Assembly: GCA_043783625.1 (NCBI GenBank)
Contig: JAYVZE010000200.1
Location: forward strand, 14,097-78,096
From: Blastocatellia bacterium
GTDB taxonomy: Bacteria; Acidobacteriota; Blastocatellia; RBC074
DNA length: 64,000 bases
Direction of reading: 5' to 3'
In this document: positions 7,948 to 45,441 of the stretch, piece after piece
Numbering within the stretch: position 1 is the stretch's first letter
Layout: every line of letters begins with the position of its first letter
The notes under the pieces: generated by a model
The model's database searches: none
What the model was told of the DNA's origin: nothing
The model's input: the letters and a program-made list of their open reading frames with translations, nothing else
Program-made: the position numbers and the translations under genes

Positions 7948-10900
7948 TTAGAAACTAAGCTTCATTACCGCCTGCACCTGACGCCCTGTCGCGCCAAATA
8001 ACAAGCTGGAAATCACACCAGCACTCGCCGTACCAATGGAATTTCCCGGATTCGCAAATTGCGCGTGATTGAATGCGTTGAAGAATTCCACTTTGAATTG
8101 ATGCTCAAAGCGATCACGGAATTTGGTAATTTTCACGAGTGAAAAATCTACGTTGACCTGTTTTGGTCCACGTAAAATGTTACGACCGGAATTGCCATAC
8201 GTGCCAGTTGCGTCTGGCACAATTTGGAAAGCGGCTGTATCAAACCATTTGTCAATCGTAGGAGTGCTCAGCAATCCCGATCCGAGTCGGTTCGGACGAT
8301 TGCCCGTTCCGGTTGAAGCGACACCAACTGATTGGTTGACGCTGAACGGCAGACCTGTGCGAGCCAGGAAAATACCGCTCAATTGCCAGCCACCCAGGAA
8401 TTTATCCACAATGGCATTGTCGCCCGTATTCAGCAGCTTGCCTTTGCCGACAGGTAAATCATACGTCCAGCTTGAACTGAAAGTATGCTTGATGTCGAAA
8501 TCTGAAACAGCGCGATCACGTCTGAAATCATACGCGTTTTGCACTGTGCCTTCTGTGTCGGAAACAACGTCAATTGTTTTGCCGAAAGTGTAGGCATTGA
8601 GGAATTGCAAACCGTTCGAGAAGCGGCTTGAAAATTTCATCAACAAGGCATGGTGATTGGAATCACCGCGACTTTGTACCTGTGACAACGAGCGTAAGCC
8701 TGGTGCCAGAACGATGAAAGGGCGGTTGACGTTGGAGTCAGAGATGCCCACTACCGGCTTCGCCTGATTAATGTCCATCTTGGCAACAAGGTGTGTGCCT
8801 TTGGAGCCAACGTAGGACATTTCCAGCGCGTAGTTTTTGCTGAGCTGTTGCGAGACGTTCAGGTTCCACTGTTGCGCATAACCATCTTTGAAATTCGTCT
8901 CAAAGATAGAGCGCGTTGTGCCTGTCGGAATAGCCGCAGGATTCAGCGCGGGTGGCGCAGGAATACCAGCACTGATTTTGTACAACGGCAAATAGGTGGT
9001 TGTTTGTGAATTGGAAAGCAGGAACGGCGGGCTATTCGCCTTGGAGGACGAAGTACCCGTCAGAGGGTTATTCCAGAAAATTCCATAGCCTCCACGGGCA
9101 ACGGTTTTGCCTTTGCCGAAAACGTCATAAGCAAAACCAATGCGCGGCGCGAAATCTTTTTTGGGAATCGTCTGCAAATAACGACCGACTTTGACACCAC
9201 CGATGGTGGCACTGTCAGACGCTACGATAAAGCGACCGATGCTGGCATCGAAATTCGATTGACGATTATACTGCTCAACATACGGCACAAACAGGTCGTA
9301 ACGTAAGCCTAAATTGACCGTCAACTTGCTGTTCACGCGCCAGTCATCCTGCACATACGCGCCATATTCAGGGCGGCGTTCACCATAAATTCCCTGCATA
9401 AGTCCACGTGTGACACCCGAAGCATAGCCCAGCATAAAGCTGGCAAGCCCAAAGCCGCTGGTTGCATTCTGGCTGCAACCTGACGCAATACCTGCGCAGT
9501 TCGAAGTCAGATTCTGGTTGAAGTTGAAATTTCCAACAATGCTATCAACGTTGAAAATGTTACGACGACGTTTCGTATAGCTACCACCCACTTTGATGGT
9601 ATGCGCGCCGCGTGTGTGGGTCACGTTATCAAAAAACTGGAACGTATCTAAAAACGTGAGCAGAGGTTGATTGCCGTTGGCTCCGAGGTTACGAATGTCA
9701 CCCTGAGCGAAGACAATCTGCGACATCGCGGTTGCCGTGTCCGTAATGTTGACGCCGGGAATTCCGACTGTACTTGCCAGATTTGTTCCGAAATCAATGG
9801 AAGTCACTTTGAACGCGATACGGCTGGCACCAAAGCGAAACTCATTCAACCAGTGTGGATTAATCGTATGCGTATCGTTGATGGCCAAACTTTGTCCGCG
9901 AATCAAACCGTTACCAGCACCGAACGTGGTACCCGCATCACCATGCGGCAAGGTTGCAGGCAGAAAACGATTGGTTCGCTCAAAGCTGTAACGCACAAAA
10001 GCGTGATTTTTCTCGGAAAAATAATGATCAATTTTCGTATCAAATTGATCGTCTTCGCGTTTCAAAACCGGGTTGCTCAGATAATTATTAATGACCTGAC
10101 CGTTCGCGGCGGTGGTTCCCGTCACGTTCGGCAATGGATATAACTGATCAATAATTTTACGTGAAGTCGGGTCAATCATGCTCGCAGGAATAACGTTCCC
10201 AGCAAACGCAGCTTTGGCAACCGGATCATAAATCGTGCGCGTCAATTCCGAAAAATCTCCGGCACGCATTTTCAAAGTTGGAACCGAGGAAAGATAAGTT
10301 TTACCGTCTCGGATTCTGGTTCCTTGATAATCGCCAAAGAAAAATGTTTTGTCGCGGTAGATGCGTCCACCTAACGTCCCACCAAATTGATTTTGCTTGA
10401 ACGGTGGTTTCTTGCGTCCGTTTTTATTATTGAAAAAATCGTTCGCGTCTAAAGCATCATTGCGCAAAAATTCAAACGCATTGCCATGAAAAGCATTTTG
10501 CCCGGATTTGATTTGGATGTTCACCACGCCGCCGCTGGAGCGTCCGAACTCTGCGGAATAGGTGCTGGTTTGCACTTTGAATTCTGCCAGCGCATCAATG
10601 CTGGGGAAGATCACCACCGAGTTCAGCCACGTTTCGTTATTGTCCACGCCGTCGAGCAAAAAGTTATTGTCGCGGGTGCGCATTCCGTTCGCCGAAAACG
10701 AAGCTGATGCACGCCACGCCAGACTGCCTGCGCCGTCAATATTCGCGCCGGGAATTCCGCGCAACACACCAGGCAAAGTTCTGGTCAATTGCACGAAGTC
10801 ACGACCATTCAACGGCAGATTTTTAATTTGTGATTCGTTGATCGTGCCGCTGAGATCAGAGCTATCCGTTTGAATTAAGGGCACTGTGCCTTCAATCTGA

Positions 10901-11241
10901 ATTGTTTCCGTTGCTTGTCCGACTTTCAAAGCGAGATCAATACGCGCCTTTTGGTCAACACCGAGCTGAACATCACTCACGGCTAATTTGCTGAAACCAG
11001 CCATTTCTACCGTGATGTTGTAAGCACCAATCGGCAGCGACGGCGCAATATATTCGCCAGAGCCATCACTGGTCAGCGTCCGTGAAACGCCAGTAGCTTT
11101 TTGCACCAGCGTAATTTTTGCACCAGCAACTGCGGCTCCACTCGGGTCAGTCACTGTGCCGAGAATCGTTCCACTTACTGCCTGTGCAAATGAAGAGGCA
11201 GCAAAAAGTGCCAGGAAGACGAGAGTTAGAAAAATATTCAT
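7948..11241 (-). CDS. TonB-dependent receptor with N-terminal carboxypeptidase-regulatory-like domain
   Basis: Signal peptide, CarbopepD_reg-like N-terminus, plug and 22-strand barrel length. Ends in a C-terminal aromatic residue (KLSF). ATG at 11241 gives a clean signal peptide. Confidence 0.8.
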   Translation of the reverse strand: MNIFLTLVFLALFAASSFAQAVSGTILGTVTDPSGAAVAGAKITLVQKATGVSRTLTSDGSGEYIAPSLPIGAYNITVEMAGFSKLAVSDVQLGVDQKARIDLALKVGQATETIQIEGTVPLIQTDSSDLSGTINESQIKNLPLNGRDFVQLTRTLPGVLRGIPGANIDGAGSLAWRASASFSANGMRTRDNNFLLDGVDNNETWLNSVVIFPSIDALAEFKVQTSTYSAEFGRSSGGVVNIQIKSGQNAFHGNAFEFLRNDALDANDFFNNKNGRKKPPFKQNQFGGTLGGRIYRDKTFFFGDYQGTRIRDGKTYLSSVPTLKMRAGDFSELTRTIYDPVAKAAFAGNVIPASMIDPTSRKIIDQLYPLPNVTGTTAANGQVINNYLSNPVLKREDDQFDTKIDHYFSEKNHAFVRYSFERTNRFLPATLPHGDAGTTFGAGNGLIRGQSLAINDTHTINPHWLNEFRFGASRIAFKVTSIDFGTNLASTVGIPGVNITDTATAMSQIVFAQGDIRNLGANGNQPLLTFLDTFQFFDNVTHTRGAHTIKVGGSYTKRRRNIFNVDSIVGNFNFNQNLTSNCAGIASGCSQNATSGFGLASFMLGYASGVTRGLMQGIYGERRPEYGAYVQDDWRVNSKLTVNLGLRYDLFVPYVEQYNRQSNFDASIGRFIVASDSATIGGVKVGRYLQTIPKKDFAPRIGFAYDVFGKGKTVARGGYGIFWNNPLTGTSSSKANSPPFLLSNSQTTTYLPLYKISAGIPAPPALNPAAIPTGTTRSIFETNFKDGYAQQWNLNVSQQLSKNYALEMSYVGSKGTHLVAKMDINQAKPVVGISDSNVNRPFIVLAPGLRSLSQVQSRGDSNHHALLMKFSSRFSNGLQFLNAYTFGKTIDVVSDTEGTVQNAYDFRRDRAVSDFDIKHTFSSSWTYDLPVGKGKLLNTGDNAIVDKFLGGWQLSGIFLARTGLPFSVNQSVGVASTGTGNRPNRLGSGLLSTPTIDKWFDTAAFQIVPDATGTYGNSGRNILRGPKQVNVDFSLVKITKFRDRFEHQFKVEFFNAFNHAQFANPGNSIGTASAGVISSLLFGATGRQVQAVMKLSF

Positions 11242-11539
11242 ATTCCCGAAAAATCGGGAATGCTTAGGATGGATCATTTGTATCTCCTTGAGAGTTTCGT
11301 TGATAGATAAATCACTTCATAGCAAAGATTGGCGGAAATATCCTTCTATTCAAAAGGTGATTTGCAAAACTCCCGACAAAGCTGATTTGAGTTTTTTTGA
11401 TTACTACTTTTTGGCAATCAGATTAATTCTTATTAGTAACACAACGCCTACGCATTTTCGTGCAACAATGGAATGAAGTATACCGCAATAAACTGCGTAC
11501 ACAAAATCATTGACCAATAATTAATGATTATAATGCAGG

Positions 11540-21127: not shown

Positions 21128-21210
21128 AAGTTGCGTAAGAACTTTACGAAGAGGCGTAGCTCAATTCCCAAAATCGTTATAGCTTTCAGAAAATGAACTT
21201 TCAATCAAAG

Positions 21211-21392
21211 CTCCAACGGAGCGAAATACAATAGCCCAGGGTGCAACCCTGGGTAGGATCAGAAATAGAATCCAAGCCCTGAAGGGGCGAAATAAATTAT
21301 TGCGCCCTTTCAGGGCTTGATTTTTTCCGTGCAATCAACCCAGGGTTGCACCCTGGGCTATTGTATTGCCACCCCTTCGGGGTTCTGTTCGG
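21211..21392. repeat. about 180 bp nested-palindrome element (family 3), copy 1
   Basis: Outer IR atagcccagggtgcaaccctggg / cccagggttgcaccctgggctat, inner IR gccctgaaggggcg / cgccctttcagggc, terminal ccaacggagcg. Second copy at 24091..24286. Confidence 0.7.
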
Positions 21393-21450
21393 AAAAACAT
21401 TTTCTTAATTTTTATAACCAAACAAACTACCCATTGAACTTTCGGAATTC

Positions 21451-24090: not shown

Positions 24091-24286
24091 AGTCCCAACG
24101 GGACGCCGATAACATAGCTCAGGGTGCAACCCCGGGTAAGATCGGAACATATAAAGTAGCCCTGAAGGGGCGACATAAAAAATCTGTGAATATCTCGCCC
24201 TTTCAGGGCTTGCGCAAAAATCTCAACGCTTCCCGGGGTTGCACCCCGGGCTATTACATTCCGCTCCGTTGGAGCTTTGTTCGGAG
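24091..24286. repeat. about 190 bp nested-palindrome element (family 3), copy 2, same orientation as copy 1
   Basis: Outer IR atagctcagggtgcaaccccggg / cccggggttgcaccccgggctat with compensatory A:T to G:C change relative to copy 1. Inner IR gccctgaaggggcg / cgccctttcagggc. Terminal cccaacggg / ccgttggag. Confidence 0.7.
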
Positions 24287-26692: not shown

Positions 26693-29600
26693 TCACCAAA
26701 CTAACTTGGCTCCAAGCTGGTTAATACGTGCGGCTCTGGCACTAAGTATCTTGCCAAAATTCACCGTATCAGCCACGCTACGAACTGGGTTGCCCCATTG
26801 CGTATGGTTGAAGGCATTGAACGATTCGAGACGGAATTGGAAGCTCAATTTCTCCGTGATGGTGAAATTTTTGAACAAACCTGTATCCCAATTGTTAATG
26901 CCTGGTAATCGCAGAATGCCACGCCCTGAAGTTCCGAGGAATCCAGCGGCAGGTTGTTTGAAAGCTGCGGTATCAAACCATTTGTCAATAGTTTTGAGCA
27001 ACGAGGCTTTCCCGACTATATCCGCCCGATTCGTTCCAAAGGTATCATTCAATCCCCCGACATCGGCTGCCGAAATTGTCATCGGGAAACCGTTCTGGAA
27101 GGTGGCAATTGCATTGACTTGCCAACCACCAATTAAGATGTCCGCAGCTTTGTGCAAATTGCCTCCGAATTTCTTGCCGCGTCCGATAGGCAATTCATAA
27201 ACGAAGCTGCTCACCAAGCGGTGATTCACATCGAATTCTGAACGTCCACGGTCACGACGAATGTCGCTATTATCTAAAAATCCCTGCCAACCCGCGACAT
27301 CGTTTCCGATACCGGCAGCGGCAGATTTGCTATCAATGCTCTTAGCCCAGGTATAGACCAAAGTGAAGAGCAACGAATTGCTACGATGCTCAACCTTGGC
27401 ATTGAAGGCATTGTAACTGGAGTTCCCTGACCAATCGCTATCAATGTAAGTAGCAAAATTAACGAAAGGTCTGCGAGCCAGCACAGGGCAATCACCAACC
27501 GTTGGGGTAGCGGCGCAAAGAGCAGGATTAACAGGCTTACGTGATTGGGCAATTTGTCGCCGCATCAGCAAGTGAGTCCCTTTTGAACCAATATAATTGA
27601 GTTCAAGGGTAGTGTTGGTACTGAGCGAACGTTGCGCGCCGAGTGACCATTGCTGAACATACGGATTTTTTGGGTTCGGCGAAATATTCACTGCCAGAAA
27701 CGTGTTTGCCGCCGGTGACGCTACGCCAACGTTGGCAAAATTCGGAAACAATTGGTTTGTGGTCAGCAAGTTTGTCTGACCTAAACTTTGCGTGTAATTC
27801 CCACGACTGACATACGGGAAAATATCTGCAGCTCCATCAATTTCGCGCCCTTCGGCGGAGTCGTAAAAAATGCCATATCCACCACGTAAAACTGTTTTGT
27901 CATCACTAAATGGACGCCACGCAAAACCGAGGCGCGGAGCAAAGACTTTCTTCGAGGCGTCAGCAGGATTGCGACGACCGGCAAACTTATAATAGCTTTG
28001 GTCGCCAACGATTCCTTTATCCACAAGAGTCTGATCCGCTACCAGCAAGCCCCCCTTTGGATTGGACAGATCGCGCCATCCCATGCGGTTGTTTGTTTCG
28101 TAGGGAACTGAGCGATAATCCCAACGTACTCCTAGATTCAGAGTGAGCCGTGAGTTAATTTTCCAGTCATCCTGAATATAAGGAGCAACATATAGAAAAT
28201 TAAATTCACGTGGATTGCCTGTCTTGCCTGCAACGCTAAAGCCTGCTGGCTGGAAGACGCTTGCACCCGAAAAATAACCTAACAGAAAATCCGCAATTGC
28301 ATTGTCTCTGGTAGCATTTCCGGTGAAAAACCCGCTGAACGTAAACTGACCTAAGAAATCATTCGCCAGATCGCGTTGCAGCGACCATTTACGGAAATTG
28401 AATCCCATATTCAGCGTATGACGACCACGAATCCAAGTCGTAGTGTTGCTGATGTCCACCATCGGCTGATTACTGGATTGGTAATCATTGACCGCGCTGC
28501 CTCCGCCGGAAAGCCCTGCTCCGACACCACCGAAACCGACTGCTGGATAGGAACGCTGATCGTCAGGTAATCCGGTAAAGACACCCGTCAATTTCAGAGT
28601 ATCTATATCAGCCTGTGGAGCGGTCGCTCCATGCTGAACAGCACCTGCCTCAATGTAACCAAAGCGAAATTGATTCACGAGATTTGAACTGAAGGGAATC
28701 GTATGCGAAATCTGCCAGTTCTTGGTTTTTTGAACGAAGTCTACGTCTCCTAGTTCAGTCGTGTTTCCGATGGCAGTGTTAGTGTAATCAGATTGTGTAT
28801 AGCGACCAAAGACTGTGCCCAAGCGACCAAGTTGCTGATCGCCGCGAATGGTGTATTGCTTTTGATCCAGCGGCAAATTGCGAACCCGAAGATAGTTTCC
28901 ACCCGTACCAGTGAAATTCGGCGCCGGGAAAAACTTCGTGGCAGCGAGCTGTGCCAGACGCGAAAAACGGTTCGTTGGAACAATGTTGCCGACAAATGGT
29001 AACCCTGTCACAGGATCAAGAATTTGCGAGGTGAATTTGCCCCCTAGCTGATCGGCAGTCGGGACAGTCAGCAAATCCGATGATCCCGCGATTCGCTTAT
29101 ACCCTTCAAAATTCGCCAGCCAGAATGATTTATTACGTCCATCATAAAGCTTGGGAATCCACACTGGACCGCCAACTACAAAACCATATTGATCTTGTTT
29201 TAATTTGGTTTTCTTGACTCCGCGCGCATTATTAAAGTAATTGTTAGCGTCAAATTTATCTCTCCGCCCAAACCAGAAAACCGTTCCGTGTAAATCGTTC
29301 GTCCCCGTCTTACTGACGATATTGACCTGATTGGCACTGAAGCCATACTCCGCTGAGTATGTTCCGGTTTGCTCTTTGAATTCCTGAATGGCATCAATAG
29401 ACAAAATTGCCGCCGGGGTTCCCAGTGCGGTATCCGTGTTTGACGTTCCATCAAGCAAGTAATTGTTTGAGGTTGGACGCGCACCATTAATACTAATAGC
29501 ATTACCCGCGCCTTGGCGCATTCCACCTTGCTCTCCGTTTGTCTCAACGGTTCCACCATTCAGAAATAACAAGGACAAAAAATTGCGCCCGTTAAGAGGT

Positions 29601-30037
29601 AGCTGTGTCACCTGTTTTTGTGTGATGGTCTGTCCCATCGAAGCAGTTTCAGTGTCGAGCGTGACCGCCGCCGCTTGCACATCCACTGTTGCGCTGACAT
29701 CACCGACTTTTAGATCGAAATCTGCACGAGCAATTTTATCCACTGTCAGTTGCACGTTGGATTGCCTGGAAGTAGTGAAACCCGGCTGTGCTACTGCTAC
29801 TGTGTAGTTTCCAACGGGCAACAAGGCAAACGAATAAGTGCCTTCTTCATTGGTCGTCGCTTCTCGCATAAAACCATTCGCTTGATTAGTGACAGTGACT
29901 TTTGCCCGCGCTAAAACGGCTCCGCTGGCGTCTTTCACTGTACCGGTAATTTGCCCCGTCGCGGTTTGCGCTTTAAGTGAACTGGTAACTCCTAAAAGCA
30001 ACGCGAGAAGAGCAAACAGAAAAGGTATTTTTCTCAT
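26693..30037 (-). CDS. TonB-dependent receptor with N-terminal carboxypeptidase-regulatory-like domain
   Basis: Signal peptide, CarbopepD_reg-like N-terminus, 1114 aa, C-terminal aromatic residue (KLVW). Confidence 0.8.
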   Translation of the reverse strand: MRKIPFLFALLALLLGVTSSLKAQTATGQITGTVKDASGAVLARAKVTVTNQANGFMREATTNEEGTYSFALLPVGNYTVAVAQPGFTTSRQSNVQLTVDKIARADFDLKVGDVSATVDVQAAAVTLDTETASMGQTITQKQVTQLPLNGRNFLSLLFLNGGTVETNGEQGGMRQGAGNAISINGARPTSNNYLLDGTSNTDTALGTPAAILSIDAIQEFKEQTGTYSAEYGFSANQVNIVSKTGTNDLHGTVFWFGRRDKFDANNYFNNARGVKKTKLKQDQYGFVVGGPVWIPKLYDGRNKSFWLANFEGYKRIAGSSDLLTVPTADQLGGKFTSQILDPVTGLPFVGNIVPTNRFSRLAQLAATKFFPAPNFTGTGGNYLRVRNLPLDQKQYTIRGDQQLGRLGTVFGRYTQSDYTNTAIGNTTELGDVDFVQKTKNWQISHTIPFSSNLVNQFRFGYIEAGAVQHGATAPQADIDTLKLTGVFTGLPDDQRSYPAVGFGGVGAGLSGGGSAVNDYQSSNQPMVDISNTTTWIRGRHTLNMGFNFRKWSLQRDLANDFLGQFTFSGFFTGNATRDNAIADFLLGYFSGASVFQPAGFSVAGKTGNPREFNFLYVAPYIQDDWKINSRLTLNLGVRWDYRSVPYETNNRMGWRDLSNPKGGLLVADQTLVDKGIVGDQSYYKFAGRRNPADASKKVFAPRLGFAWRPFSDDKTVLRGGYGIFYDSAEGREIDGAADIFPYVSRGNYTQSLGQTNLLTTNQLFPNFANVGVASPAANTFLAVNISPNPKNPYVQQWSLGAQRSLSTNTTLELNYIGSKGTHLLMRRQIAQSRKPVNPALCAATPTVGDCPVLARRPFVNFATYIDSDWSGNSSYNAFNAKVEHRSNSLLFTLVYTWAKSIDSKSAAAGIGNDVAGWQGFLDNSDIRRDRGRSEFDVNHRLVSSFVYELPIGRGKKFGGNLHKAADILIGGWQVNAIATFQNGFPMTISAADVGGLNDTFGTNRADIVGKASLLKTIDKWFDTAAFKQPAAGFLGTSGRGILRLPGINNWDTGLFKNFTITEKLSFQFRLESFNAFNHTQWGNPVRSVADTVNFGKILSARAARINQLGAKLVW

Positions 30038-30531
30038 ACATTAAACTCCTGAAATAAAATCGTTTAGGGATTGAAAACGACTTCCTGTGTGAAAACATTA
30101 TGGTCTCATCAGAAAAGATGAGTACACACACTAAACCTCAAGCTGAAGGGACTACTTCAGCTTAGATACAATTCGTAAAATAACGAGTGGCTGTCATTTG
30201 AATAGATGACAGCCTAGCTAACTTAATTAATTTTTCTATTTGTTAATTAGCCTGCTACTACGAGTAATTTCACTCAGCAAAGATGATTAGAAATCTTAGA
30301 AATTATTAGATCGAAAGTGACAATTATGAATTATGGTGCTTTTGTTTAAATTAGCAATAAGAAATATTTTGCGTATCTATTTTTCCATAATGCGGAACGA
30401 TCTTCTAATAAAATAAAAGACTTTACCAGGTTTAACCTGAAATAATTCAGAATATTAATTCCGATATATGGAATTAGTTAGTAAAATAAAGCTTCCAGGC
30501 TCATTACATCGCAGCACTTTTACTGAAGCAC
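30038..30531. promoter_or_regulatory. 494 bp strongly AT-rich intergenic region upstream of the TonB-dependent receptor gene, containing three stable hairpins
   Basis: Hairpins ctcatcagaaaagatgag, gctgaagggactacttcagc and ggctgtcatttgaatagatgacagcc. No ORF. Composition far below flanks. Confidence 0.45.
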
Positions 30532-31686
30532 TTATCTGTTATTTTTTACGGGGGTAGAGGAGATATCCGTTTCCGGCGGGTAAATTAATCCAACATTTTT
30601 TGGGGTAATCAATTGATGTTTGACGAAGACCGCTGAAGGAGTCGGCTTCTTTTGTAAAATGGCGAGGGCGAGGGGAATTAATTCTTCGCCGTAACGTTCC
30701 GGGAAATAACCGACACTGCCAATTAATCGGGTTCCCGGACGACGCAGTTCGTCACGTGCGGCGCGGGTGGCATTCTGTCCGATCACGGCACATTGATTGA
30801 TTCGCCCGCATTCTTCAAAGGCACGCAACGCGCCCAACGCACTGGGATCATTGACTGTCGTTACCAAAGTTCGCCTCGCTTTATTGCGCCGCAGATGACG
30901 GCGGACAACGTCCAGGCTATGCTCAAAATCGCCTTTGACTTCCAGATGTGTCGTAATCATCGCCACCCCCGGCAACGTTTGACTCAGCCCGGCCAAGGCT
31001 CCCGTGATGCGCAACTGAGGTAACGAACCAGCCAGTGGCAATTCCAATAACAAGACTTCCTCAACTTTACCTTCCCAGTTTTCTTTCGCCCAACGCCCTA
31101 ACGCGCGTCCGCCAATCACGCCGGCCTGATAACTGTCAGCTCCAAAATAGGTCGCACCGGGATGCGGAATTTCAATGGCGATAACGGGAATATTCGCCTC
31201 GACAAATTTTGAAGAAATGATTGGCGCAACATGCTCATACGCCTGAAATTCAAGGACTAAATTCACACCTTCCTTAATTAGTAAATCCGCATTGCGCAAA
31301 GCGGTTTTCGGGCTGTAATTATTATTGACGGCAATCAGCCGGACTTGTTCGCGTTCGGCGACGCGGTGCAGGCTTTGGCTGACATCTTGTGAAAACTCCG
31401 AGTCGGTTGATTGCGCAGCAAAGCCAATTGTGAACGTCGAAGAAGTAATAATCTGAATGCAACTTCGATAAACTCCTTTGCTGACACGTTCGATCATTCC
31501 GCCTTTGAGAAGGCTTTGTAATAAACGAAAACAGGTAGTTTTGCTCAGCTCGACGCGTTCGACGACTTGCCCCAAAGATAAGACTTCGTGATGCTGAAAG
31601 GCGCGGAGGATGCGGCAGGCACGCACTACGGCTTCAGCAGTTTCCGGTTCGTTTTGCGTTCTTAGTGCCATAATATTTATTGTCAC
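30532..31686 (-). CDS. transcriptional regulator: N-terminal winged-helix (IclR/MarR-like) HTH fused to periplasmic-binding-protein/LacI-type sugar-binding domain
   Basis: HTH segment LSLGQVVERVELSKTTCFRLLQSLLKGGMIER, then PBP-type two-lobe domain. GTGA overlap with upstream amidohydrolase; alternative ATG at 31671. Confidence 0.55.
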   Translation of the reverse strand: MTINIMALRTQNEPETAEAVVRACRILRAFQHHEVLSLGQVVERVELSKTTCFRLLQSLLKGGMIERVSKGVYRSCIQIITSSTFTIGFAAQSTDSEFSQDVSQSLHRVAEREQVRLIAVNNNYSPKTALRNADLLIKEGVNLVLEFQAYEHVAPIISSKFVEANIPVIAIEIPHPGATYFGADSYQAGVIGGRALGRWAKENWEGKVEEVLLLELPLAGSLPQLRITGALAGLSQTLPGVAMITTHLEVKGDFEHSLDVVRRHLRRNKARRTLVTTVNDPSALGALRAFEECGRINQCAVIGQNATRAARDELRRPGTRLIGSVGYFPERYGEELIPLALAILQKKPTPSAVFVKHQLITPKNVGLIYPPETDISSTPVKNNR

Positions 31687-45169: not shown

Positions 45170-45213
45170 AAGTATTTTCCTTGTGTGGGAAAGATCGGAA
45201 ATCTTTCCGTTTG

Positions 45214-45441
45214 TTATCGGTTGTGCCGTTGGGTCTTGGCGTAGACAAACACGCCCAAGAAGCCGCCCAAAAATCCACTTACCAAACCTGCAATTCCGTT
45301 ATTGATAGCATTAACAATTTCACTGGACGGCATCCCAATCAGAAAATATGTGACAACCGCGCTCATTAACGCGCCCGCCACCCCTCCAATCAAACCTTGT
45401 TTCAGACATTGCCCAATGGGTGACGATGTTGCGGTATTCAT
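45214..45441 (-). CDS. small glycine-zipper membrane protein (possibly GlsB/YeaQ/YmgE family)
   Basis: 75 aa, two Gly-rich transmembrane helices, 4 nt overlap with upstream gene. Confidence 0.4.
   Translation of the reverse strand: MNTATSSPIGQCLKQGLIGGVAGALMSAVVTYFLIGMPSSEIVNAINNGIAGLVSGFLGGFLGVFVYAKTQRHNR

Follow-up and report, generated by a model that had tools for sequence, protein, structure and literature searches.

The window analyzed here, a stretch of 64,000 nucleotides from a Blastocatellia bacterium (Acidobacteriota; contig JAYVZE010000200.1), contains a 494 bp intergenic spacer (30038-30531) that separates the stop codon (30532) of a regulator gene from the ATG (30037) of a gene for a TonB-dependent receptor. 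This spacer probably constitutes the entire cis-regulatory region that serves the receptor gene, and would comprise two operators, a promoter and a structured leader of ~287 nt. The region is real, functional and of an ordinary kind, i.e., a regulated promoter followed by a structured 5' untranslated region (UTR), and there is strong comparative evidence for the predicted operator-promoter part. The original prediction had pointed to three hairpins close to the receptor gene and overlooked the distal 40% of the spacer, which reads as two transcription-factor operators and a promoter. Since the genes on either side are both encoded on the minus strand, a leader RNA would run from 30531 to 30038.

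Synteny and conservation of the spacer

The spacer was first described as unusually long, low in G+C and free of open reading frames (ORFs), all of which hold: it is the longest in the window, its G+C content is 0.32 overall and 0.27-0.36 in 200-bp windows, compared to ~0.5 in the flanks, and its longest ORF is 29 amino acids (aa). Its G+C content is also among the lowest in the window for spacers of comparable size. The accompanying statement that other spacers were under 150 bp was mistaken, as nine others measure 323, 268, 262, 205, 192, 167, 160, 154 and 143 bp. The sequence is single-copy within the window, with no repeats elsewhere, and a repeat or mobile element was rejected on this ground.

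A genome scan with the regulator as query gave 80 loci (L-numbers below denote related loci), and the close relatives were all metagenome-assembled genomes of Blastocatellia. About 25 acidobacterial loci, from both Blastocatellia and Terriglobia, show the same order on one strand: the regulator gene, a spacer of 346-756 bp, and an orthologous receptor gene. The orthologous spacers of Blastocatellia are 479-756 bp long, and the receptor orthologues are 78-91% identical in 11 of 12 Blastocatellia loci and 27-59% identical in Terriglobia and Bryobacteraceae. Judged by this distribution, the long spacer is an ancestral property of the regulator-receptor gene pair, which rules out a horizontal-transfer junction, one of the origins initially suggested for it. 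Conservation was measured against the six closest relatives, whose regulators are 93-96% identical. Identity is 73-80% in the leader and 65-70% in the operator-promoter part, compared to 37-54% at four-fold degenerate sites of the flanking genes, and the spacer is therefore non-coding DNA under purifying selection. The comparison with relatives that had been proposed as a check thus finds the spacer kept above the neutral level.

It is extremely unlikely that the spacer is a functionless transfer junction, a decayed gene or the scar of a mobile element, or that its hairpins simply terminate the regulator gene. Low G+C content would be compatible with a remnant of this kind, and no obvious terminator was found directly 3' of the regulator stop codon, but the synteny and the long spacer extend over two acidobacterial classes, conservation of the spacer greatly exceeds that of synonymous sites, and the sequence is single-copy and has no ORF remnant above 29 aa. 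As for termination, the hairpins are >315 nt from the regulator stop codon and downstream of the conserved promoter. Since no terminator follows the regulator gene, transcriptional read-through into the operator region is possible.

Predicted operators and promoter

The two predicted operators are 15-bp palindromes of the form TTCC-N7-GGAA, with the consensus ATTCCGCA-N-TGCGGAAT. Box 1 (30459-30473, minus strand aATTCCATATATCGGAATt) and box 2 (30383-30397, minus strand gTTCCGCATTATGGAAa) are 76 bp apart, start to start, and are centered at about -143 and -67 from the putative transcription start. In a scan of the 64-kb window with a position weight matrix (PWM) built from 62 related boxes, box 2 was the best site (20.6 bits) and box 1 the second (17.2 bits), with the next site at 12.8 bits; exact matches to TTCC-N7-GGAA number three in the 64 kb, two of them in the spacer. 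Both boxes were found in 13 of 13 Blastocatellia orthologous spacers. Their spacing in the Blastocatellia orthologues is 76 bp in ten cases, 75 bp in one and 79 bp in three, the distance from box to ATG is 294-534 bp, and in at least 10 loci the two-box unit starts no more than ~10 nt past the stop codon of the regulator orthologue. The boxes are thus statistically exceptional and conserved in orthologous regulatory regions, as befits candidate operators, and they are predicted to be bound by the adjacent regulator, because two-box units adjoin regulator genes and the motif is lost where the regulator has diverged.

The third exact match (45177-45191) was considered as an operator and judged to be a chance occurrence, because it lies beside a start codon in a stretch coding for a small membrane protein and is not among the top PWM sites. 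This stretch is a 268-bp 'spacer' (45170-45437) in the list of ORFs of at least 150 aa; it reads as a small hydrophobic or membrane protein of ~75 aa, and is probably coding.

Downstream of box 2, a consensus scan identified a sigma-70-type promoter, TTGCTA-16-CATAAT, with 9 of 12 consensus matches and a distance between the hexamers that lies within the usual 16-18 nt. The -35 hexamer of this promoter (P1; TTGCTA, 30352-30357, minus strand) lies exactly 25 nt after box 2, and the -10 hexamer (CATAAT, 30330-30335, minus strand) is found at the same offset in orthologues. The same register, with TTGnnn 25 nt after box 2 and a -10-like hexamer 16-17 nt further on, occurs in 36 distinct two-box units, which were collected from one metagenome scan with the two-box pattern and a re-analysis of all loci (genomes and metagenomes). 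The -10 variants at offset 47-48 in orthologues and paralogous targets include CATAAT, TATGGT, TACAGT and an extended TGnTATTAT. Given the position of the -10 hexamer, transcription would start near 30324 (+/-3) and leave a leader of ~287 nt.

Multiple operator sites suggest oligomeric, cooperative binding, and the regulator would most likely occupy both boxes in this manner. It would most likely activate transcription when its sugar effector is present; activation is proposed because the boxes are upstream of a weak -35 hexamer at a fixed distance and phase.

Some lineages depart from this arrangement. A third full TTCC-N7-GGAA box overlaps the -10 hexamer in L012 (7290-7310), and in L022 and L024 the sequence TACC/TTCC-N7-GGAA immediately follows the -10 hexamer; these third boxes are hints of possible extra repression in those lineages. 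In the Terriglobia loci L062-L079, where the regulator is ~52% and the receptor 45-49% identical, the spacers are 346-419 bp long and have no TTCC-N7-GGAA boxes, so the operator there must differ.

Structure of the putative leader RNA

Transcription from near 30324 would give the receptor mRNA a leader of ~287 nt (30038-30324, minus strand) that folds into a series of hairpins, with the four numbered below among them. A 306-nt version of the leader has a predicted minimum free energy of -75.9 kcal/mol (z -4.2), and none of 100 shuffled sequences was equal or better. A long structured leader had been among the functions first suggested for the spacer, and as a prediction it is well supported: the register-conserved promoter predicts a start ~287 nt from the ATG, the sequence is under purifying selection, and compensatory and G-U changes are seen in relatives. 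Of the three stem-loops originally described, all are present, and when each is folded by itself as RNA of the gene strand, hairpins 1 and 2 are more stable than shuffled sequences, while hairpin 3 is no better than these.

Following the leader from its putative 5' end, a small hairpin, R1 (30270-30286, minus strand; UCAUC, loop UUUGCUG, AGUGA), displays a GCUG(G/A)G motif and lies within the block TTCTAATCATCTTTGCTGGGTGAA, which is almost invariant among close relatives. Next comes an A/C-rich linker (30222-30249, minus strand; beginning TAATTAACAAATAGAAAAAT) that is probably unpaired and is conserved in alignments A1-A3; its elements TTAAnTAAC..ACAA also occur in the L007 clade. Hairpin 1 (30189-30214, minus strand) comes after a second GCUGG-type motif and has nine perfect base pairs between GGCUGUCAU and AUGACAGCC around an 8-nt loop (-14.9 kcal/mol, z -5.2). 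The block ACUCGUUAUUUUACGA (30173-30188, minus strand) pairs only weakly in the window; in relatives it supplies the 3' side of a long-range helix whose other strand is CUCGUAA-UAGCGGGU. Hairpin 2 (30140-30163, minus strand; AAGCUGAAG, loop UAGUCC, CUUCAGCUU) also has nine perfect base pairs (-13.1 kcal/mol, z -3.7), and counterparts are predicted in six of six close relatives, with shifted registers and a short form in L005. Hairpin 3 (30086-30130, minus strand; -12.5 kcal/mol) consists of a 6-bp core, CUCAUC/GAUGAG (30104-30121), and outer GUGUG/CACAC pairs; its counterparts, again in six of six relatives and in shifted registers, have a longer CU-rich loop, CUCUCCUCUCGUC. Hairpin 4 (30056-30084, minus strand; -7.7 kcal/mol, z -4.2) is directly 5' of the ribosome-binding site and is followed by a U-rich run. 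A hairpin beside the Shine-Dalgarno sequence recurs, with unrelated sequence, in the window, in the L007 and L010 clades and in L164. The Shine-Dalgarno sequence itself (AGGAG, 30046-30050, minus strand), read from the sequence, stands 8 nt before the ATG (30037-30035). It is invariant in alignments A1 and A2, in which the conserved leader blocks are TTCTAATCATCTTTGCTGGGTGAA, GGGTTAATTAACAAATAGAAAAAT, TATTTTACGA, TTTTCACACAGGAAGTCGTTTTCAAT and the ribosome-binding site.

In RNAalifold predictions the long-range helix of the relatives joins CUCGUAA-UAGCGGGU to ACCCGCUA-UUUUACGAG (columns 93-107 with 205-220). The duplex is strong only in L004 (z -4.6) and L002 (z -2.6); neither the window nor the L007 clade yielded it, so it was rejected as a general feature. 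Other candidate elements were also set aside. The longest ORF of 29 aa argues against a conserved small ORF or leader peptide, and inspection of alignment A2 by eye showed that the candidate ATGs of L004 and L005 do not occur in L002, L003, L105 or the window. Pairing of the CU-rich loop of hairpin 3 with the Shine-Dalgarno sequence was rejected since the loop is lost in the window, and ANTAR-type dual hexaloops were rejected because the UAGUCC and UUUUCU loops, compared by eye with the A..G.. pattern, do not fit it.

A terminator scan weakly flagged hairpin 1 and its T-rich tail, where the T-run begins 6 nt past the stem and is paired in relatives. Hairpin 4 is AU-rich in the window and its counterpart carries a terminator-like flag in L007, and no canonical terminator conserved among the leaders was found. 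Termination at hairpin 1 is central to another explanation, in which the promoter drives a separate small RNA of ~150 nt ending at this hairpin and a UAUUUUA tract (~30175), and the receptor gene has its own promoter. Nothing speaks specifically for such a gene, and it is quite unlikely, though conceivable. The terminator-like flag would agree with it, as would a U6 run at the homologous place in L006 and L007 and the concentration of conservation in the 5' half of the leader. However, a T-run that is displaced from the stem and base-paired in the long-range helix of relatives is not a convincing terminator, the proximal 130 nt are conserved as well, and the consensus scan found no promoter-like site on the gene strand within 30038-30300 from which the receptor gene could be transcribed. 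In other loci, protein-coding genes with short leaders lie directly downstream of this two-box promoter.

Genes for TonB-dependent receptors are classic riboswitch targets, the cobalamin riboswitch and btuB being the standard example. Under a riboswitch explanation, an aptamer, whose ligand might be a sugar or a cofactor taken up through the receptor, would control a terminator or the ribosome-binding site. The leader is long and significantly structured, as a riboswitch would be; U-rich tracts follow its structured parts, and relatives show both a covarying hairpin and the long-range closing helix. A riboswitch is nevertheless very unlikely. The Rfam scan advised in the original prediction gave a gathering-score match only to Acido-Lenti-1, outside the spacer, and none in the spacer or in 10 orthologous and paralogous loci, and the five matches to the spacer at E<=10 were at chance level, with 10-21 bits against cut-offs of 50-100. 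The best-conserved domain of the leader is missing from orthologous (L010/L012 and L022/L024/L042) and paralogous receptor leaders, and 35 nt of it are deleted in the window. A conserved canonical terminator was not found, and a dedicated sugar-sensing regulator would already control the gene. The leader does not appear to work via a known ligand-binding aptamer.

Covariation and instability of the leader

Across 10-11 orthologues, 94% of the cells in R1 can pair, with changes from A-U to G-C and from U-G to C-G; in the window, one of its pairs is a C-A mismatch. Just after the second GCUGG motif of the relatives stands a further stem, hairpin B, in which six of eight pairs are changed on both sides and 90% of the cells pair. 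For R1 and hairpin B together, 87-92% of cells are paired, compared to 36-56% when partner columns are slid, 7-8 of 13 pairs have changed on both sides, and the covariation score was reached by none of 500 shuffles. The many U-G pairs in the two hairpins point to RNA of the gene strand; on the opposite strand they would be C-A mismatches. A covariance model aligns hairpin 1 of the window to the slot of hairpin B, making it the positional equivalent. Compared with its closest relatives, the window has a 35-nt deletion in this region (window 30205-30215), also present in the Logan contig L001, whose sequence is identical. The deletion apparently arose between two GCTGG repeats and fused the flanks into hairpin 1.

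Leaders downstream of the two-box promoter repeatedly contain a short motif of the form GCTGGGAA, GCTGGGTGAA or GCTGGGATGA, which in the window is found at 30262-30280 and 30207-30221 (minus strand). A copy 6-7 nt after the -10 hexamer, at the putative +1, is present in L010, L012, L015, L084, L096, L112 and L128, and ACTGGGAA takes this place in L085. In three other clades the motif is 98-106 nt after box 2, and three copies are found in L084, L096 and L128. The GCTGGGAA/GCTGGGTGAA form includes a GGAA half-site, and it may bear some resemblance to the GGA site of CsrA.

These observations also bear on whether the conserved blocks beyond the promoter act as DNA, as additional sites for this or a different regulator or for a nucleoid protein drawn to AT-rich sequence, with the hairpins being incidental palindromes. 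The GGAA half-site, the placement of the motif at the putative +1 in seven loci (ACTGGGAA in L085) and its near-fixed offset of 98-106 nt in three clades would all suit such sites, as would the third full box over the -10 hexamer of L012, and hairpins 1 and 2 are perfect palindromes that hold no strand information. On the other hand, the pairs of R1 and hairpin B have changed in ways (compensatory, or to U-G) that suit an RNA of the gene strand, and the hairpins hold their position while their sequence changes. Sites of this kind are, on balance, unlikely.

Several points weigh against a regulated promoter with a functional structured leader. The conserved leader blocks could, as just described, be DNA sites instead of RNA elements. 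The -35 hexamer of P1 is weak, and a second -10-like hexamer (TCTAAT, 30286-30291) occurs 7 nt before the conserved GCUGGG motif, so that a later start near 30278, with a leader of ~240 nt, is conceivable. Start site, regulator binding and effector are all predictions from sequence. Within the leader, hairpin 3 has a z of only -1.3 and is not significant against shuffles, the long-range helix seen in relatives pairs weakly in the window, hairpin 2 of L005 is without its 5' arm, and 35 nt that are present in L002-L005 and L105, their covarying hairpin included, are missing from the window. The covariation alignments hold only 10-11 related sequences from two subclades, and the second was fitted to the structure. 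Finally, the leader covariance model R1 matches only its 10 training sequences and, weakly, L164 (E 0.29). It gave no match in the L010/L012/L022/L024/L042 orthologues or in paralogous receptor leaders, and the L010/L012 and L022/L024/L042 leaders have only the short GCTGGG motif in common with that of the window. The confinement of the model to two subclades argues against a widely conserved aptamer.

Returning to the reading of the spacer as promoter and structured leader, the leader would most likely add control after initiation, through mRNA stability, translation initiation or premature termination, possibly by way of a bound protein or small RNA. A more specific version, that it carries a lineage-restricted and previously undescribed cis-regulatory RNA in which GCUGGG(A/U)GA repeats and the A/C-rich linker are bound by a protein or small RNA, is put forward only tentatively and has perhaps a minor chance of being correct. 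One GCUGGG(A/U)GA repeat of this element would be in a hairpin loop and another just 5' of the covarying hairpin.

Flanking genes and the putative regulon

The upstream gene (30532-31671, minus strand) encodes a regulator with an IclR-type winged helix-turn-helix (HTH; aa 19-68) and a type-I periplasmic-binding (sugar-binding) domain, with Pfam matches to HTH_IclR (1e-09) and Peripla_BP_4 (1.1e-18). Its likely start is the ATG at 31671 (379 aa), which was also chosen by gene callers on the identical contig; the mechanical ORF begins at a GTG at 31686 (384 aa), a start that would overlap the stop codon of the upstream amidohydrolase gene. The protein was rejected as a true member of the IclR family, its C-terminal part being Peripla_BP_4/Peripla_BP_1 and not an IclR effector domain, and NCBIfam equivalogs for KdgR and related IclR-family regulators scored 21-24 bits against cut-offs of 250-350. 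Its nearest solved structures are sugar-binding proteins only. Structure and NCBIfam comparisons found no close characterized relative, and an exact-protein look-up returned no record. More than 4000 homologues carry in public databases only the names 'substrate-binding domain-containing protein' or 'ribose transport system substrate-binding protein', and these names probably misdescribe, in a systematic way, a large family of acidobacterial transcription factors.

The product of the downstream gene (26693-30037, minus strand) is a TonB-dependent receptor of 1114 aa that has a signal peptide and belongs to the acidobacterial CarboxypepD_reg + OMP_b-brl_4 type, with Pfam matches to OMP_b-brl_4 (2.7e-218) and CarboxypepD_reg (2e-23). 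The exact-protein look-up returned a single identical contig of 7.8 kb. The surrounding cluster includes genes for glycoside hydrolases (GH3-like, arabinofuranosidase, xylanase/esterase). Another TonB-dependent receptor gene in the window (7948-11277) is also preceded by an AT-rich spacer (11278-11539; 262 bp, G+C 0.34), which does not have the two-box motif, and AT-rich long upstream regions may be common among such receptor genes.

In other loci, the same type of two-box promoter precedes receptor paralogues, a bifunctional rhamnulose-1-phosphate aldolase/SDR (dehydrogenase; NF006189, 1064 bits against a cut-off of 634), a Gfo/Idh/MocA oxidoreductase, and a 410-aa uncharacterized protein with no family match. 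A regulator orthologue whose stop codon is immediately followed by a two-box unit has an alpha-L-rhamnosidase gene ~1.25 kb downstream of it. Since genes of rhamnose catabolism follow the same type of promoter, we infer a regulon concerned with rhamnose-type sugars, and the putative effector is probably L-rhamnose or a rhamnose-derived compound. A search of the accessible literature found nothing relevant on acidobacterial receptor leaders or on the regulator family with an IclR-type HTH and a sugar-binding domain.

Comparison with known systems and significance

The regulator and the predicted operators resemble the IclR-family systems of KdgR and IclR in having an IclR-type winged HTH, multiple inverted repeats of 15-17 bp, and a putative role in the control of carbohydrate uptake and catabolism. 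They differ in that the regulator has a type-I periplasmic-binding (LacI/RbsB-like) fold instead of the GAF-like IclR domain, and in the operator, which is a duplicated TTCC-N7-GGAA at a fixed 76 bp and upstream of the -35 hexamer. In Bacteroidota polysaccharide-utilization loci, too, a sugar-responsive regulator is found beside a TonB-dependent receptor gene, with glycoside hydrolases in the cluster, but in contrast to the SusC-type loci the receptor here is of the CarboxypepD_reg + OMP_b-brl_4 type, no SusD partner was seen, the regulator is of another type and the host belongs to the Acidobacteriota.

As with the cobalamin riboswitch of btuB, a long structured 5' leader precedes a TonB-dependent receptor gene, but the leader here has no Rfam riboswitch match and no aptamer core that extends past two subclades, and control appears to be mainly by a protein regulator. 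Long 5' UTRs of outer-membrane-protein genes can set mRNA stability and serve as targets of small RNAs and Hfq, as in the Escherichia coli ompA leader and the control of cirA and fepA by OmrA/B. The predicted leader described here shares with those of the ompA type a length of hundreds of nucleotides, a series of stem-loops, a single-stranded stretch rich in A and a hairpin near the ribosome-binding site; there is no sequence relationship. Acido-Lenti-1 (RF01687), the only Rfam family detected in the window, is likewise an acidobacterial structured RNA in intergenic spacers of the same cluster, with matches at 21209-21253 (minus strand), 21339-21384 (plus strand) and 24232-24276 (plus strand), the first two being an inverted pair within the 323-bp spacer 21128-21450. 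All three are outside the spacer studied here, and the family has no similarity to the leader.

To our knowledge, the Acidobacteriota are a dominant but poorly cultured soil phylum in which gene regulation is almost uncharted. For a regulator family that counts thousands of members, the predicted arrangement gives a concrete model, with an operator consensus, a promoter register and rhamnose as the probable class of effector. It would also connect a TonB-dependent receptor, of which many in the Acidobacteriota are unassigned, with the import of plant or microbial glycans that contain rhamnose. The leader may form a second layer of control, and is best described, on present evidence, as a rapidly evolving 5' UTR rather than a novel riboswitch class. 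If the proposed cis-regulatory RNA is real, it would represent a second, post-transcriptional checkpoint, for example for catabolite control, on top of a putatively rhamnose-responsive regulator family that would control receptor genes in Blastocatellia. The main interest of the region lies in this uncharacterized regulator family and its operator, together with a possible lineage-specific RNA element in the leader.

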